A DNA stretch of 29,070 bases from a virus. Shown here one piece after another: positions 7,260-15,389 of this stretch. Both the position numbers and the translations under genes were made by a program. Numbering within the stretch: position 1 is the stretch's first letter; the number at the start of each line of letters is the position of its first letter. Location of the stretch: the UHGV virus genome UHGV-1360357. One strand, 5' to 3'. The notes beneath the pieces were generated by a model that did no database searches, was not told where the DNA came from, and was given only the letters and a program-made list of their open reading frames with translations.

Positions 7260-7478
7260 ATGTACTTGACACTTCAGGAGTGGAACGCACGCCAACGACG
7301 CCCAAGAAGCCTTGAAACAGTTCGTCGATGGGTACGCGAGTGCAGGATATTCCCTCATCCGGTTAAGGATGGAAGAGAGTATCTGTTCCACGAATCAGCG
7401 GTAAAGGTTGACTTAAATCGACCAGTAACAGGTAGCCTTTTGAAGAGGATCAGAAATGGGAAGAAGGCGAAGTCATGA
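7260..7478 (+). CDS. xis: excisionase Xis (lambda-type)
   Basis: 72 aa, MYLTLQEWNARQRRPRSLETVRRWVRECRIFPHPVKDGREYLFHESAVKVDL..., recognised as lambda Xis; overlaps the int start as in lambda. Confidence 0.9.
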   Translation: MYLTLQEWNARQRRPRSLETVRRWVRECRIFPHPVKDGREYLFHESAVKVDLNRPVTGSLLKRIRNGKKAKS

Positions 7479-8526
7479 GCGCCGGGATTTACCCCCTAAC
7501 CTTTATATAAGAAACAATGGATATTACTGCTACAGGGACCCAAGGACGGGTAAAGAGTTTGGATTAGGCCGAGACAGGCGAATCGCAATCACTGAAGCTA
7601 TACAGGCCAACATTGAGTTATTTTCAGGACACAAACACAAGCCTCTGACAGCGAGAATCAACAGTGATAATTCCGTTACGTTACATTCATGGCTTGATCG
7701 CTACGAAAAAATCCTGGCCAGCAGAGTAATCAAGCAGAAGACACTCATAAATTACATGAGCAAAATTAAAGCAATAAGGAGGGGTCTGCCTGATGCTCCA
7801 CTTGAAGACATCACCACAAAAGAAATTGCGGCAATGCTCAATGGATACATAGACGAGGGCAAGGCGGCGTCAGCCAAGTTAATCAGATCAACACTGAGCG
7901 ATGCATTCCGAGAGGCAATAGCTGAAGGCCATATAACAACAAACCCTGTCGCTGCCACTCGCGCAGCAAAATCAGAGGTAAGGAGATCAAGACTTACGGC
8001 TGACGAATACCTGAAAATTTATCAAGCAGCAGAATCATCACCATGTTGGCTCAGACTTGCAATGGAACTGGCTGTTGTTACCGGGCAACGAGTTGGTGAT
8101 TTATGCGAAATGAAGTGGTCTGATATCGTAGATGGATATCTTTATGTCGAGCAAAGCAAAACAGGCGTAAAAATTGCCATCCCAACAGCATTGCATGTTG
8201 ATGCTCTCGGAATATCAATGAAGGAAACACTTGATAAATGCAAAGAGATTCTTGGCGGAGAAACCATAATTGCATCTACTCGTCGCGAACCGCTTTCATC
8301 CGGCACAGTATCAAGGTATTTTATGCGCGCACGAAAAGCATCAGGTCTTTCCTTCGAAGGGGATCCGCCTACCTTTCACGAGTTGCGCAGTTTGTCTGCA
8401 AGACTCTATGAGAAGCAGATAAGCGATAAGTTTGCTCAACATCTTCTCGGGCATAAGTCGGACACCATGGCATCACAGTATCGTGATGACAGAGGCAGGG
8501 AGTGGGACAAAATTGAAATCAAATAA
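7456..8526 (+). CDS. int: tyrosine integrase Int (lambda-type)
   Basis: 356 aa; N-terminal arm-binding domain MGRRRSHERRDLPPNLYIRNNGYYCYRDPRTGKEFGLGRDRR, catalytic region with the conserved R...H-x-x-R...Y residues (HELRSLSARL, LLGHKSDTMASQY); recognised as lambda Int. Confidence 0.95.
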   Translation: MGRRRSHERRDLPPNLYIRNNGYYCYRDPRTGKEFGLGRDRRIAITEAIQANIELFSGHKHKPLTARINSDNSVTLHSWLDRYEKILASRVIKQKTLINYMSKIKAIRRGLPDAPLEDITTKEIAAMLNGYIDEGKAASAKLIRSTLSDAFREAIAEGHITTNPVAATRAAKSEVRRSRLTADEYLKIYQAAESSPCWLRLAMELAVVTGQRVGDLCEMKWSDIVDGYLYVEQSKTGVKIAIPTALHVDALGISMKETLDKCKEILGGETIIASTRREPLSSGTVSRYFMRARKASGLSFEGDPPTFHELRSLSARLYEKQISDKFAQHLLGHKSDTMASQYRDDRGREWDKIEIK

Positions 8527-8529
8527 TGA

Positions 8530-8760
8530 TTTTATTTTGACTGATAGTGACCTGTTCGTTGCAACAAATTGATAAGCAATGCTTTTTTATAATGCCAACT
8601 TAGTATAAAAAAGTTGAATGTGAAACGGTAAAAACAATTAATATCAACAGCTTATAATTGATTCAGTCTAAAAAATAGACTGCATAATGCTACAAAACAC
8701 AACATATCCAGTCACTATGAATCAACCACTTAGATGGTATTAGTGACCTGTAACAGAGCA
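8530..8760. other. attP attachment site (P' arm - core - P arm), lambda-type
   Basis: Core TTAGTATAAAAAAG at 8600-8613 (reverse complement of the lambda common core GCTTTTTTATACTAA, one mismatch at the edge); arm-type Int sites containing GTCACTAT on both sides (8539-8554 tandem, 8706-8715, 8741-8750). Both arms look phage-derived. Confidence 0.8.
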
Positions 8761-8802
8761 TTAGCGCAAGGTGATTTTTTTGTCTTCTTGCGCTAATTTT
8801 TT
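8761..8802 (+). terminator. sib / tI retroregulation hairpin and terminator
   Basis: TTAGCGCAAG ... CTTGCGCTAA 10-bp stem followed by TTTTTT, matching the lambda sib/tI sequence as remembered; lies distal to attP relative to int. Confidence 0.75.
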
Positions 8803-8989
8803 GTCAACACACTGGGTTAGCTGAATTTACAACCACGCTCAGTATCTCGATAAGCGCAGAGAAATGATGCAGTGGTGGGCGGACTGGCTTGATGAAAAGG
8901 TTGAGTGAACGACATTATGAACAACAGGAGAACACACAAAACCTCGCAAAAATTACAAAGATTTGTGTGTTAGTACTTATCATTGCGAT

Positions 8990-10936
8990 TTAAAGAATAA
9001 TTCTTTCAACCTTCCAAGTTGCAGATCTACTTCCTGAAATTCCAACTCCATTTGAATCTTTGAGAAGAATTCTAAATGATGTTTCTGTTACCAAATCATA
9101 CGTTGCATTTATTGCTGCGCCATCTCCTATCGATATTGAGATAAAATCAGGCACAACTCCAAGTCCGTGAGTTATTATTTGTCCATTTGAATAAACCCCA
9201 GTTCCTATTTTAGTCGTTGCATACCCGGCATTGTTTGCAAGGACAACATTAACCGAATTTGCTCCTAATTTAGCAATCTTCCTATCAGATGAAATCTCTG
9301 TAGATTGTATTGCATTATTTGAAATAACTGCATCTTTTATAGCCCTGAAATCTCCAGGTGTTCCTGATACAGCATTAACAAGTATTGCATACTGCATACT
9401 TCTATCACTTCTTTTATTGCCGAAAGCATTACCGCAAATTGTTGTCCCGGTAAATCCAGATGCTCCCGTGTTATCAAGAAGAATTCCGCACCTATATGTA
9501 TTTGATGTATCAGAAGGCAAACCTATACCTCTTATGGAATTATTGGATACTATATTATTATCTGGCTTGACATTTGCATTATTGCAGTAAATGCGAATTC
9601 CAACATCACAAAATGCATCTAATACATTATCAGATATAACATTACCCGCTCCCCACACATCAATACCCATAAACGAATCAGCACCATCTCCAAAAAATTT
9701 ATTTTGAGTAACTATTGTTCCGCTACCCCTAATCAATATAGCAGGCCTTGGAATGCTTGAAGTCTTTTTGCTATCATTGTAGCCATGATTATCGTTTATA
9801 TGAGATTCCCCCCCCGCACTATCTATGCAGCAATTACACGAATCTATTATATTTTTATTTATCCTTACATAGACAGAATCGTGTTTTATACCTGTAATAA
9901 AATTTGATATGGAATTTGATACAAAACTAGTTGCCTTACATGGCAATGAAACGCCATGTATAGCGTCCTTAGACGCTCCTATGGCAACAAAATGTATCCC
10001 TGTAACAATTGCTGGGTTCTCATTAGATGATGTGTCACCTATGGTAATAGCAAAAGAATTCTCATCTTCAGGACCATCAATTGTTAATATCGTTTGTGGC
10101 GTATATCCTTGAGATATTTGCGATCCATTTCCTGAACCAAACCCTCTCATACTTACAAAAGATGGGATTCTTAGTTTTTCTGTTACTCTACAGTTGCCCC
10201 CCCAAAAAAATTCCTCTTTAACATGGGCAGCGGCCAGCATGATTGGAATTGTATCATCTTTAACTCCATCAAGCGTCGCTCCATAATTTCTAAGGTCATT
10301 GGTTTCATACCCATTTAAATAACCAATACATCTCCATCCTGTTGAGGTATATCTGGCAAATTTATCATCTGGGGGAACAGTAAAAGGAGGAACTGTCATT
10401 TCTCCTCCAGTTATTTCATTTTCATATACCCAAAACAACCCATCATAATCTTTGATTGCGCATCGGTTGTCTCGAATGATATTTTGCTTGTCATAGTTCC
10501 CACAATATGAAAAACCAGTTGCTAATTTCTGTAGATTTGTTCCTGATGCTGAGTTTATTAATGATGCGCCATTTTCGCTAGTTAATACATTATTTAGAGG
10601 GTCAGGATCATACTTCAGCACATTAGGAAAATAGAACTGCTGCGCACCGTACGCATCATAAACAGCCATAGAATGGCCTTGCACGGTTACGAATTTGGCA
10701 ATCTGTCCGTTATATGCAGGATACCCGCCAGCGTTAATGATGATTGGCTGTGCAACAGGAACGTGAGAACCGTCTTCATTCTCTACATAAACCTGAATCT
10801 GGTTTTCAGGATTTACCGGGTCAGTGTCAATTTTTCCGATATAAATTTTGCCATTGGCAACCGCTTTAAAAGAACGCGCCATAGTGAAGAGTTGCGAAGG
10901 CATGCTTACCACAACATTTGCGGTGATATCTGTCAT
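8990..10936 (-). CDS. tailspike protein (P22 gp9 family; conserved head-binding domain, divergent receptor-binding beta-helix)
   Basis: 648 aa; first ~115 residues ([58 protein letters not shown]...) match the P22/HK620-type tailspike head-binding domain; the rest is Asn/Gly/Ser-rich with beta-helix-like repeats but unrelated to the P22 endorhamnosidase domain. Confidence 0.9.
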
Positions 10937-10993: not shown

Positions 10994-11020
10994 TAAAAAA
11001 ACCCAGCCGAAGCTGGGTCG
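10994..11020 (-). terminator. intrinsic terminator downstream of ant
   Basis: On the - strand CCCAGC-ttcg-GCTGGG followed by TTTTTTTAT, between the ant stop and the tailspike RBS. Confidence 0.6.
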
Positions 11021-11036: not shown

Positions 11037-11993
11037 TCAGTAGTTATGTACTGAAGGAGGTAATTCTTTATTCTTAAGTCTCATCCATGCGGAAAGATTC
11101 GTTGGTCCGTCTGGCTCATTGATATCAACATCTCGTGTGTGATTGATTAAAACGTCTCTCGCCATATCGATAATACGGGAGAACTCATAACCGCAGTCAT
11201 GACATCTGCCGGAATAGTTCGATTGAATTTGTTTTAGCGCCGGATACAATTCGCGGAATAATGCCTGTGAGCGGTTGGCATAATCCCATAACCATACAAG
11301 GCTGTTTGCTTCTTTTGCAGAAAGCTCGTCGGTTTTCTTCTCTTGTTTGCCGATAAATTCACCTTCAAGCACTACCCTGTGGATGTACTCTACGGCCAGC
11401 GGGATTTGTTCAATTGAAAGTTCATCAATGCTGTCAATGCCAAAACGCTGATGAACCATATTGTATGCATCGTCATAGCGAAGTCCTTTCTTTCCTACCA
11501 GCATGTTTACTGCATCGCGTAGCGGTGTGCGTTCAGCTACTGAAGTTTTACCGCCAATAGCCTTCCTCTCTTGTGTGGCAGTAACTATTGCGTCATATGC
11601 GCGGATAACCTTCAGCGCAAATGCTGCGCTAATCCACATGGCGTAGGAGTAAACAAGCTCCTTGCACACGTATGTTCCACCATATCTACCTTTCTTAGAA
11701 ATGACGGGATTCTTATTCTGCATATCCGCAGAATTAAAAATTTCATTAATCAATTCAATAGTTTCATTTCTACGCATGAAGAAAGCTGGCTGATGTTTTT
11801 CCTCCTTTCCAGACGCTACATGAAGGTCATTAAGCGAGTAACGACCCTCTGAATCCATATGAATCTTGACGTCAGAAATGATGATGCTATTAGTGCAATT
11901 TACAGTTGACTTTGCTAAGCTTGACATATCAATAATACCTCGTAAGTTTTGTTGATACCGAAGCCCTGACTGTTCCCGCAGTTGGGGCTTCAC
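11037..11993 (-). CDS. ant: KilA-N domain antirepressor-like protein at the ant position
   Basis: 318 aa; N-terminal KilA-N-like motif (...[13 protein letters not shown] ... [23 protein letters not shown]); located downstream of arc and upstream of the tailspike as P22 ant is; the symbol is by position, orthology to P22 Ant unverified. Confidence 0.6.
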
Positions 11994-12211
11994 TGTTTTT
12001 GTAAGTCACTGTAGCTATAAAGCCACTGACCACTCATTTTTGATTTGATTGACTCTACTGAGTCACGGCAAGGAATGATTCCGCCTGACATCATTCTGAT
12101 CTCCGTAAATTCACCACTCCTTATCGATTCAATGCCATCAATGTTAACTAAAGATTTACCTCTACCAAGTGCATTCTCATAGCCAATCTCATCAACCTCA
12201 ATAAATCTCAT
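11990..12211 (-). CDS. hypothetical protein (73 aa) inserted between arc and ant
   Basis: ATGA overlaps at both ends (with the arc stop and the ant start) indicate translational coupling; no recognisable domain. Confidence 0.5.
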
Positions 12212-12348
12212 ACCGTTATCCCCTCTCTCTTCAAGCTGTCCATCACCCGTTTAATTACTTCTGCGCTAAATGAGCGACACTCTTCCTTTGCTTTTTCTTC
12301 AAGAATTTTTTCTAGCTTCTCTGGCATACGCAGTGTTTTTACCTTCAT
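12208..12348 (-). CDS. arc: Arc-like ribbon-helix-helix repressor (46 aa)
   Basis: Found by hand (below the 60-aa track cutoff): [46 protein letters not shown], aligning with P22 Arc (...FNLRWPREVLDLVRKVAEENGRSVNSEIYQRVMESFKKEGRIGA); GGAGG RBS. Confidence 0.7.
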   Translation of the reverse strand: MKVKTLRMPEKLEKILEEKAKEECRSFSAEVIKRVMDSLKREGITV

Positions 12349-12453
12349 TGCATCCTCCGTTGTATGTGGTACGCATACATAGTATTTAGGTACGCATTGA
12401 TAGTCAATAGATACCTACATATCCTGTGGTAAAAAATTATTCAGGATGCGCCT
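12349..12453. promoter_or_regulatory. divergent Pant/Pmnt-type promoter-operator region
   Basis: 105-bp intergenic region between divergent arc and mnt; inverted repeat TGTATG-N7-CATACA (12361-12379), direct repeats GGTACGCAT spaced 21 bp (12368, 12389), inverted repeat ATCCTG-N14-CAGGAT (12421-12446) overlapping the mnt RBS. Confidence 0.5.
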
Positions 12454-12705
12454 ATGTCTGATCGTAAGTACAAAAACCCTCAAGTGAATCTGAGGCTTCC
12501 TGTAGAGATAAAGGAACGTCTTATTGAACTGGCTGAGGCTAATTCTCGTTCATTAAATGCTGAGATGGTAGCAGCACTTGAGGCATGGACTGAAAAAAAT
12601 AAACATATTCAAGCACTAGATCTTGCAACTATAGCATCGCGGTTGATAGAGCTTGAGCATGAGGTTGAGAAGTTAAAATCTATACATGGCAACAGTGAAA
12701 AATGA
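12454..12705 (+). CDS. mnt: Mnt-like ribbon-helix-helix repressor
   Basis: 83 aa; PQVNLRLPVEIKERLIELAEANSRSLNAEMVAALEAW aligns with P22 Mnt (PHFNFRMPMEVREKLKFRAEANGRSMNSELLQIVQDAL); divergent from arc as in P22 immI. Confidence 0.75.
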   Translation: MSDRKYKNPQVNLRLPVEIKERLIELAEANSRSLNAEMVAALEAWTEKNKHIQALDLATIASRLIELEHEVEKLKSIHGNSEK

Positions 12706-13016
12706 AACGTATCGCTATTTTGTTAATATTGTTCTTCTCTACAATAGTTTTCGCCAAACCAAAATCAGATAATGGCGATCTTAAAGGCCTGCAAGAACTC
12801 ATGATAACTTCGAAATTTGCTGGCATGTGCGGCACAATCAAACAAATGGCAACATTTCAAGAATCAACAAAAATGCCTGGCGGAGATGAGTTCTTACAGC
12901 GTTTTCTGACCACAGAGCAAGCAAGACTAGGAATGAATCCACAGGAATTTCTTGAAGCATGCCAGAAGTCAATTTCAGCTTATACCAATTATTACAATCT
13001 AACTTCTGATAAATAA
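12702..13016 (+). CDS. secreted (signal-peptide) protein, 104 aa, unknown function
   Basis: ATGA-coupled to mnt; N-terminal signal peptide MKRIAILLILFFSTIVFA with an AxA-like cleavage site; mature part contains two Cys. Confidence 0.65.
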   Translation: MKRIAILLILFFSTIVFAKPKSDNGDLKGLQELMITSKFAGMCGTIKQMATFQESTKMPGGDEFLQRFLTTEQARLGMNPQEFLEACQKSISAYTNYYNLTSDK

Positions 13017-13041
13017 TAGAAAGGATTTTATAAATAACTTT

Positions 13042-13527
13042 ATGAAAAAATCACTATTAATTGTCCCGCTTCTGCTGGCTGGATGCGCAAAAGTAAGTGA
13101 CTACCAAGCAAGTTGCGAACAACGCTATCCAAAGCTTAGTGATATGGCTAATTGCCTTGATGCCAGCGTGAAGAACGACTCACGCATGGCATCAGCACCA
13201 ACACCTAAGCTGTATGTCCTTGCTGCGAAGATGCTCGGGCAAGGTGTCGATCAAGGCAAGATAAGTGACGCACAGGCAAGACTTGAGCTTCAGAATCTTT
13301 ATGTTCAATTACAAAGCCAAGAACAAGCCCAACAAATAGCACAAAGCCAAGCATTCCAGCAGGCTTTATTGAATTATCAGGCTGTAAACACAATGCAAGC
13401 GATCGAGCAAAAAGCGCGCCAGCCTGTTATAACTCAACCTTACCCAACACGCGTTGACACATATACAAACTGCAATTCAGGTTTTGGAAACACGGTAACA
13501 TGCAACAGTAGCAGTAATATCAGGTAG
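13042..13527 (+). CDS. lipoprotein (lipobox LLAGC, +2 Ala), 161 aa, Gln-rich
   Basis: MKKSLLIVPLLLAGC lipoprotein signal; residue after the Cys is Ala (not Asp), consistent with outer-membrane sorting; Gln-rich helical middle, Cys/Asn-rich C-terminus. The RBS is weak or distant. Confidence 0.65.
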   Translation: MKKSLLIVPLLLAGCAKVSDYQASCEQRYPKLSDMANCLDASVKNDSRMASAPTPKLYVLAAKMLGQGVDQGKISDAQARLELQNLYVQLQSQEQAQQIAQSQAFQQALLNYQAVNTMQAIEQKARQPVITQPYPTRVDTYTNCNSGFGNTVTCNSSSNIR

Positions 13528-13541
13528 TTATATCTTATCTT

Positions 13542-15389
13542 TTATTGCTGTTCTGCTGTAATTTGGCTTGAAAGTATAGGGCGTATCGCATTTGCAGCAT
13601 TATTTAGCGCTCTTTCATAGGCTGGTGTTCCTGCTTTGGTGTTTGCCAAACGTAAGAGAGCATTCCTTGCTGCTTTGGACTCATACAAGCGCATCATTGC
13701 ACCGAAACCAGCCTCAAGCCCCATTGATACGCCAAGAGTCGCAGTTGCGCCAATCGTCCTTATCCTGTTGGCTTGCGATTGCCCCGTCTGAGTTACTACA
13801 TTTGCGGTGTCTGACCTTGCTGTTTGCTGCAGAACTTCATGAAGAGCATCAAGTTCTTTCATGTGCTTTCCAGAAAAAATAGTGTTGTAAATTTCACCGC
13901 CTGACTGAGATTTCAGCTTATTAACTTCAGTGATGAACTTGGCTGGAGAGTCACCGGCCTTTTCCGCTATTTTGCTGACGTAAGCTGCACGCATAGCATC
14001 TTTCCCTTTATCATCCAGTGCGCTCCAGATTCGTTTCACGTCAGATGGTTTTCTGCTTAATACAACGGTATTTATAAGTTCAGGACTGGCTTCACTGCTT
14101 GCCTTGTTGAGTTTGTTAGCAATGTTTTTATTAAGCACCTTATTATAAACGTTTGCATAATCGGAATTTGCTTTAAGGTATTTTGCTGCGTCTGATGCAC
14201 CGAGGTTTTTAGCAACTGCGTTACGAAGGTCTTTTGACATTGCATTCTCTACCATATTGGTAGCTGCTTTTGCCTGGTTGGGGAAGACCATAGCATCTCC
14301 CTGAACATTAGATCTAAATGCTGTTCTGTGCTGACGCAAGAGATCAAACGTAACATCCAAATCAGTTGCAGGGTTTGCTAATTCTTCACGTAGGTTACGC
14401 AAGGATGTAAGCAGGCTTTGATTGGCAGACGTCCCAAGTCGTTCCTGTCTTGCGATCGCTGTATTCAGAGCATTCATGGTATTTGTGGTATCAACTGCGG
14501 CATTACCCATTTTATTGGTGACGTCATTGATAACAGCGCCAGCGGCATCCTTCCTCCCCCTTAACGTGGTGGTCAGAGATTTCACCACATCATCAGGGTT
14601 GTACTCACCAAAACGGTCAAAATAATTACTTACCAGCTTACTACGCGTTGCATATTGCTCCGCTCGCTTTGAGCCTGTCCCGAGCAAAGCCCCCTCGGCA
14701 TCCTGAGTAAGGCCGCGAGTGAAAGCATTTTTCGGCGGGATAACATCAGATGTCATTGGTGTCACGCCCATCGATTCTGATGTGGCAATTTTCTTCGCCA
14801 CTTCTGGCGCAATATCACCTTTTATAGCCGTTATTCCACGCCCTATTCCCTTTGCTGCGGCGGAAAGAACACCCTGAGCGGCAAGGTTAACTCCGGCATT
14901 TTTAGCTGCATTTTGTGCGAAATCGCCTTTCTGATTTGCGGCCTCTGCCAGTGATCCAATAGCCATGCTTCCTGCCGTTCCAACTCCTGGAACTAAATAC
15001 CCACCAATTGTTTCACCGGCTTGTGCGTAGGGGTCTGTCGGTCTGTCTACTGGACGATAAACATCATCCAAAACCTTGGGTCCACCAAGCCCCTGACTGA
15101 TTGCATTAATCAGACTTGCGCCACCCTGCAATACGTCAAATGGTATGTTTACCAGACCACGACCAGCCTGTTCTGCAATTTGCCCTGCACTTTGACCACC
15201 AGTGAGCCAATCGCCAGCTTGTTGCATCAATGATGGTTCTTCCCGTGTTGGTGCATTATTGTCCTGATTAACTGTTTGTTGCTGAACAGCCTGACCAGCA
15301 AAATACTCATCAATGGCGGCCCCAATATCTTCCGTGCTCGTACCATCAGGGAAGGTAAATGTCTTACCGTTTGCAGTTACTTTCATCAT
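13542..15389 (-). CDS. ejection (injection) protein, P22 gp16 homolog
   Basis: 615 aa; N-terminus (M)[32 protein letters not shown]; size and position match P22 gp16. Confidence 0.8.

Follow-up and report, generated by a model that had tools for sequence, protein, structure and literature searches.

A P22/Sf6-type phage tailspike that joins a standard head-binding domain to a rare beta-helix receptor module

The receptor modules of tailspikes determine the host range of a phage, and they serve as typing reagents and as depolymerases. The virus genome UHGV-1360357 (29,070 nucleotides; this whole stretch of DNA is called the window here) encodes a tailspike that an earlier note, made from the sequence alone, had described as a chimera of a conserved head-binding domain and an unrecognised receptor-binding domain. 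This raises the questions of how the gene was assembled, which fold the second part adopts, and which host polysaccharide it recognises. We found that the tailspike is an ordinary mosaic of the P22/Sf6 type, in which a standard docking domain is followed by a rare, conventionally folded beta-helix module for sugar binding. As a whole, the evidence is best explained by a P22/Sf6-like (Lederbergvirus-type) tailspike depolymerase with a recombined receptor module, a reading that we regard as very probable. Its domain architecture, fold, mosaic junction, module rarity and host association are established in this analysis. The gene and its first domain are located as follows.

8990..10936, minus strand: tailspike gene, 648 amino acids plus stop codon, ATG start, from the open reading frame (ORF) list
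10601..10936, minus strand: N-terminal head-binding (capsid/tail-hub docking) domain, residues 1-112, matching PF09008 and the Sf6 gp14, P22 and HK620 domains in the PDB

The bounds of the ORF are exactly those of the earlier note, which did not give the strand. Residue numbers refer to the full-length protein unless module residues are named, the module being the 536 residues that follow the head-binding domain (113-648). Genes 99% identical to it in E. coli strains A35 and OkiPb01694 are annotated as 'phage head-binding domain-containing protein'.

The head-binding domain matched the Pfam family PF09008 (Head_binding) with an E value of 1.6e-65 and 218.9 bits against a cut-off of 24, over profile positions 1-112 of 113. 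Sequence matches in the PDB were confined to residues 1-117, the best being Sf6 gp14 (7sg7, E 4.6e-63), followed by P22 and HK620 constructs (E 1e-49 to 1e-44). Identity in this domain was about 90% to Sf6 (residues 1-112), 85.9% to HK620 (residues 1-127) and 73% to P22, so that the almost perfect match to the P22/HK620 type that had been reported is a fair description of the Sf6/HK620 type but applies less well to P22.

The point at which the two parts were joined is visible in the DNA.

10584..10604, minus strand: recombination junction zone, located where the KYDPDP motif ends; beyond it the DNA no longer resembles that of other P22-like tailspikes

The tailspike gene was matched by megablast in 1,131 of 5,426 complete E. 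coli genomes, 1,129 of them over the first part only, at 90-96% identity; in these the match spans gene nucleotides 1 to about 332-353 and then ends. Such DNA-level matches, ending at about 335-353, demonstrate the chimeric junction independently. Furthermore, when the module was aligned with proteins that have other N-termini, shared homology began at about residue 114, just past KYDPDP. Base composition changes at the same place, GC content at third codon positions being 0.417 for the head-binding part but 0.227 for the remainder of the gene, and the module as a whole has a GC content of 0.35-0.38 against about 0.50 in the structural genes. Together with the occurrence of the module on other phage chassis (below), the junction in 1,129 genomes and the drop in third-position GC bear out the proposal of a chimeric gene produced by receptor-module swapping. 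The C-terminal part, said to be rich in Asn, Ser and Gly over some 530 residues, measured 9.0, 9.6 and 10.9% for these residues over its 536 positions; the corresponding values for eight other window-encoded proteins are 4.8, 7.0 and 7.4%. The module also contains 12 cysteines, some of them in an invariant SCNCC motif; at 2.3% of residues, compared with 0.8% for other window proteins, this is unusual for a virion surface protein.

The module belongs to a small, uncharacterised and very rare beta-helix family. Among 5.8 billion clustered proteins we found one near-identical cluster (P0001, 91 members); ten other proteins were 45-48% identical and three 37-39%. An exhaustive scan of 1.84 billion cluster representatives with a hidden Markov model gave 12 matches below an E value of 1e-30 and 56 below 1e-3. 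We found no family for the module in PHROGs, nor a relative in the GTDB species-representative genomes scanned. The viral contig IMGVR_UViG_2529293138_000011 of IMG/VR (40,429 bp) carries a module 100% identical to that of the window. In a collection of 50,697 phage records, the sole full-length relative was the tail spike XLQ29711 of Escherichia phage KKE7M (Justusliebigvirus, phi92-like), which is 45.8% identical over module residues 2-534 (E 5e-134); a literature search found no published mention of this phage. A 9-sequence alignment that includes KKE7M, and in which the head-binding domain is also represented, has 162 invariant columns, with the motifs GLFWVYE, SCNCCID..ESH..NHGY and FFGDGA invariant in the module family, and homology extends over the full length of neck, helix and C-terminal domain. 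The search of the C-terminal part alone thus matched no characterised tailspike by sequence, the nearest relatives, at 45-48%, being themselves uncharacterised.

The KKE7M spike and the metagenomic relatives P0002-P0011 share the module with the window spike at 45-48% identity over all of its approximately 535 residues, and differ from it in having other N-terminal anchors and lytic chassis of myo-, sipho- and podovirus type. The anchors of module relatives are either PF18668 (TSP1/gp66-type) or the T7 fibre domain PF03906, and one relative lies on a contig that shares about 90% identity with the 47.7-kb siphovirus HC6. The family is consequently mounted on at least four kinds of phage chassis, which is typical module swapping; module shuffling of E. 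coli tailspikes has been described (PMC10408124). Identity of 46% between these proteins and the window module may or may not preserve specificity.

To the fold of the module, structure prediction gives a conventional answer, with three predicted parts.

10301..10600, minus strand: neck or small N-proximal domain, residues 113-212, including the invariant GLFWVYE; conserved whatever the anchor; predicted local distance difference test score (pLDDT) 40-80
9236..10300, minus strand: predicted right-handed parallel beta-helix, residues ~213-567, opening with an N-cap motif at residues 217-228
8993..9235, minus strand: C-terminal all-beta domain, residues 568-648, with 5-6 predicted strands and pLDDT ~75-90; kept in relatives

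A first AlphaFold model, built from 8 sequences, had a pLDDT of 62, with residues 138-256 below 50, and was discarded for a second, monomeric model built from a 23-sequence alignment, with a pLDDT of 83.9 and a predicted template modelling score of 0.82. In the latter, a low-confidence neck (module residues 1-100) leads into many consecutive short strands (about 101-455), followed by the C-terminal all-beta domain, which is probably trimer-stabilising or distal. Foldseek ranked the tailspikes of Sf6, Dettilon and HK620 at the top (E 1e-9 to 1e-7, 10-14% identity), and a structural search of BFVD retrieved only distant tailspike or pectate-lyase-superfamily models. The N-cap, with the signature xYGAxGDGxTDD at residues 217-228, was matched by the family profile to GH55 proteins (E 2e-21 and 8e-21), and the same residues also matched phi29 gp12, AlgE4/6, the Sf6 tailspike protein (TSP) and phi92 gp150. 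PF12708 is precomputed on the module relatives P0002, P0012 and P0013, and the beta-helix-like repeats pointed out earlier were found at residues 460 and 538, within predicted rungs of the helix. The central right-handed parallel beta-helix of the model is the canonical tailspike fold, so that the novel glycanase fold that had been thought possible is not what structure prediction of the module and Foldseek return.

The neck showed weak similarity to WceF of Pantoea stewartii (PDB 6tgf) and to the spike of Salmonella phage Mutine. WceF is a weaker sequence match, at E 1.9e-10, to tailspike residues 7-232 (10241-10918). Like the window spike it has a head-binding-like domain and a neck, and unlike it is a bacterial exopolysaccharide-processing protein, part of no virion and with no beta-helix similarity detected; the match ties the two N-terminal domains of the tailspike to a protein of this kind.

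Conserved acidic residues lie along the predicted helix.

9779..9841, minus strand: most conserved family motif, residues 366-386 (D372, E377, H384), with columns invariant or at least 90% conserved in the 9- and 23-sequence alignments
9680-9703, minus strand: D417, candidate groove residue in a conserved alignment column
9611-9628, minus strand: D440, likewise
9389-9418, minus strand: R509 and D511, likewise

Residues D324, D372, E377, N383, H384, R403, K413, D417, D440, R509, D511 and H590 are kept in relatives down to 21-39% identity. D372/E377, D417 and D440 are spaced 23-45 residues apart, or about one to two rungs, a spacing similar to that of the catalytic carboxylates of P22, Sf6 and HK620. 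From this pattern of conservation we propose a putative hydrolytic catalytic/binding groove at D372/E377, D417 and D440.

The window spike resembles Sf6 gp14, HK620 gp9 and P22 gp9 in its head-binding domain, in its position by ant/immI and attP-int, in its domain layout and in the structural match of the helix. It differs from them in that structural alignment gives only 10-14% identity and their catalytic residues could not be placed on it. Past residue ~117, phmmer and profile searches against PDB sequences detected no homology to the P22, Sf6 or HK620 endoglycosidases, including their catalytic Asp/Glu, save the generic N-cap. This agrees with the mismatch to the P22 endorhamnosidase and HK620 noticed at the outset. 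Judged at the level of sequence family, the substrate would certainly differ from those of these three tailspikes. Other structural neighbours, namely Dettilon gp208, CBA120 TSP2, K5A lyase, RbmB, the AlgE4 A-module and GH87 alpha-1,3-glucanase, are 12-19% identical to the module, and since they span hydrolases, lyases and epimerases they indicate no specific mechanism for it.

By analogy with P22, Sf6 and HK620, the tailspike would form homotrimers, six of which would be docked onto the tail hub by residues 1-112. The neck, the right-handed beta-helix and the C-terminal beta domain would engage a long-chain polysaccharide of the host surface along the helix and cut it endolytically, probably by hydrolysis, for which conserved carboxylates on successive rungs (D372/E377, D417 and D440) are the candidates. 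As the polymer is cleaved, the virion would progress to the outer membrane, and DNA ejection would be triggered there by the Sf6-type needle. The receptor module would stem from a small family that is also found on lytic chassis, and recombination at the conserved YDPDP junction would have brought it into this gene. Architecture and fold allow a tailspike-depolymerase mechanism to be assigned confidently; we infer trimer formation, enzymatic activity and its chemistry, the catalytic residues, and the identity of the receptor or substrate.

Which polysaccharide this may be was approached through the hosts. Even by sensitive blastn, module DNA was present in only 2 of the 5,426 complete E. coli genomes, OkiPb01694 (99.9%) and A35 (99.3%). 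OkiPb01694 is a bovine stx1a/stx2d Shiga-toxin-producing E. coli typed in silico as O8:H4, ECTyper having given only O8 (PMC12613899), and A35 is a related isolate from wildlife. Both carry, between gnd and his, a complete O8-family polymannan cluster that is 99.5-100% identical to that of IAI1 and of many other strains, and that occurs in 347 of the 5,426 genomes, IAI1 included. Both also carry between galF and gnd (L004, 700-11209, in A35; L006 in OkiPb01694) a second, apparently complete Wzx/Wzy cluster, made of rmlBDAC, wzx, a hexapeptide acyltransferase gene, four glycosyltransferase-like genes and wzy; its polymer presumably contains rhamnose, as rmlBDAC indicates. The variable part of this cluster was found in only five of the 5,426 genomes, none with a serotype in its name, and in one of them, strain A20, it is degraded, with a split wzx and a truncated GT4 gene. 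The wzy gene is an intact hydrophobic ORF of 401 amino acids, for which RefSeq annotates a later start (a 244-amino-acid hypothetical protein). Its disruption by an intron and an insertion sequence was considered and ruled out, the degraded group II intron and ISAs1 lying downstream, between wzy and gnd.

We put at about even the chances that the receptor is the polymer of this rare galF-gnd Wzx/Wzy cluster of the O8:H4-type lysogens. In strains of serogroups O8 and O9, a Wzy-dependent group 4 'K' antigen, whose genes lie near his, can be expressed alongside the O-antigen; a group 4-like polymer would cover O8 and would be the first barrier met by the phage. Literature searches found nothing citable on coexistence of O8 with a group 4 capsule. 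Both lysogens fall within the five cluster-bearing genomes, with a hypergeometric probability of about 7e-7 over all genomes and about 1.7e-4 among O8 genomes, figures that are inflated because A35 and OkiPb01694 encode identical proteins throughout the his-wca region and are thus related strains whose co-occurrence is not two independent events; the value among O8 genomes is about 1.4e-2 if the two lysogens are counted as one. This relatedness weighs against the rare polymer, as does the presence of the 46% relatives on several lytic phages, which may point to a widespread glycan, for instance O8. Against the favoured explanation as a whole speak the low confidence of the model in the neck and at residues 158-165, and the Pfam search of the window tailspike, which returned Head_binding as its single family, with no beta-helix family reached and PF12708 absent even at E<=1. 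The prophages themselves differ in site, torT in A35 and ybhB-bioA in OkiPb01694, and in their immI/ant genes, which argues against simple clonal inheritance of one prophage. The three prophage or phage contexts in which the spike occurs indicate that it has been kept on different P22-like mosaics infecting this host type.

Tentatively, the receptor could instead be the O8 polymannan O-antigen and the module an endo-mannosidase, an alternative to which we give less weight. An activity of this type is said to have been classically described for coliphage Omega8, reportedly by Reske, Wallenfels and Jann in 1973 and by Prehm and Jann in 1976; literature searches found nothing citable on a phage endo-mannosidase acting on O8. 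The complete O8-family cluster of both lysogens and the O8:H4 type of OkiPb01694 (PMC12613899) speak for O8, as does the spread of the 45-48% relatives over several lytic phage types, as for a common antigen; the degraded cluster of A20 suggests that the rare polymer may be dispensable. Against O8, the module is found in only 2 of the 347 O8-cluster genomes, and these are both among the five that have the extra cluster. TSP1 of phage AV101 is experimentally O8-specific (PMC10791037), and an O8 subtype of receptor-binding proteins (RBPs) is predicted to comprise G7C_RBP1, MK-13_RBP1 and fGh-Ecl02_RBP1 (PMC10408124). These proteins are like the window spike in that they may infect O8 hosts, and the module is similar to none of them: the best BLASTP match to AV101 TSP1 had an E value of 0.036 over 43 residues, and neither AV101, which is present in the phage collection, nor the phages of the predicted O8 subtype were among the tblastn matches of the module, although different folds can share a glycan. 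DNA encoding AV101 tsp1's receptor-binding domain had no match in the complete E. coli genomes. It is unlikely that the receptor is neither the rare polymer nor the O8 mannan.

On the side of chemistry, the module could act on a capsule that contains uronic acid as a polysaccharide lyase, or as an enzyme of lyase/epimerase type, instead of being a glycoside hydrolase; we hold this to be improbable, and keep a lyase mechanism at that level because the nearest structural neighbours include lyases and epimerases. That the module merely binds a glycan, as an adhesin with no enzymatic activity, or alters it short of depolymerisation, deacetylation being one example, is still less probable given the invariant acidic and His cluster on successive predicted rungs, kept down to 21-39% identity; to our knowledge, moreover, all characterised head-binding-domain tailspikes with beta-helices (P22, Sf6, HK620) are endoglycosidases. 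Finally, occurrence in prophages and the great rarity of the module might suggest a decaying prophage remnant with no current function. This is very hard to reconcile with an intact 648-codon ORF that is 98.9-99% identical in three phage contexts and a 91-sequence cluster, and with a window that holds portal, capsid and ejection protein genes in a complete-looking structural gene set and an intact attP-int, and we consider it most improbable.

The depolymerase that we favour leaves the understanding of tailspike function unchanged; the window spike adds one uncharacterised, very rare module family, and would be a further documented case in which lytic myo-, sipho- and podoviruses and temperate P22-like phages have exchanged a module. 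Its carriers among complete genomes, one a bovine Shiga-toxin-producing O8:H4 strain and the other a related strain from wildlife, each encode two long-chain polysaccharides, and the substrate, if determined, would provide a specific probe or enzyme for that glycan. There is a small chance that the specificity is one not yet tied to any sequence, whether for the rare Wzx/Wzy polymer (possibly a group 4 'K' antigen), as an Omega8-type endo-mannosidase, or through a lyase/epimerase-like site at the Cys-rich SCNCCID..ESH..NHGY. If so, it would be the first sequence-defined enzyme for a Wzx/Wzy polysaccharide co-encoded with O8, or the long-undescribed sequence of an Omega8-type endo-mannosidase.

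The surroundings of the gene are those of a P22/Sf6-like temperate phage, with an Ant protein (KilA-N and P22AR_C domains), an Arc/Mnt-type repressor and an Sf6-type tail-needle knob, and the syntenic A35 prophage is annotated with homologues of the P22-family capsid, gp4, gp10, gp16 and gp17. The tailspike gene stands at the end of the P22-like late region, adjoining immI/ant and attP-int.

8527..8989, no strand: lambda-type attP region between int and the tailspike stop, with the core ACTTTTTTATACTAA at 8600-8614
11000..11019, minus strand: terminator-like GC-rich hairpin with a T-run, between ant and the tailspike start; 8-bp stem with 5 GC pairs, a consensus match only

The lambda-type integrase gene, encoding a lambda Arm-DNA-binding domain, is convergent with the tailspike gene, and the int-attP region lies within 7456-8989. 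The attP core has one mismatch to the lambda core, with 0 such matches expected by chance, and a lambda attP between int and tailspike indicates that the window represents the phage in its excised form. The tailspike is followed by int-attP and not by seroconversion genes. The lambda-type int and attP of the window fit the OkiPb01694 prophage at ybhB-bioA, in the neighbourhood of the lambda attB; the A35 prophage lies beside torT. With this strong terminator-like hairpin just upstream, the spike would presumably be expressed through late antitermination or from a promoter of its own.

The tailspike, at 98.9% identity or more, is linked to three immI/ant modules (window 11037-13527; loci L001, 9483-11900, L005, 1711-3901, L010 and L011). 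That of the window encodes the Ant with KilA-N and P22AR_C; that of OkiPb01694 and two database contigs has Bro-N and P22AR_C together with an immunity protein of the Rap1a/Tai family; that of A35 has a canonical Ant and a transthyretin-like protein. The window ORFs 12702-13016 (plus strand), 13042-13527 (plus) and 11990-12211 (minus) gave no Pfam match. A 615-amino-acid ORF at 13542-15389 (minus strand), with no Pfam match at E<=0.001, is syntenic with the P22-gp16-family ejection gene of A35, and its counterpart on contig L010 carries PF26808.
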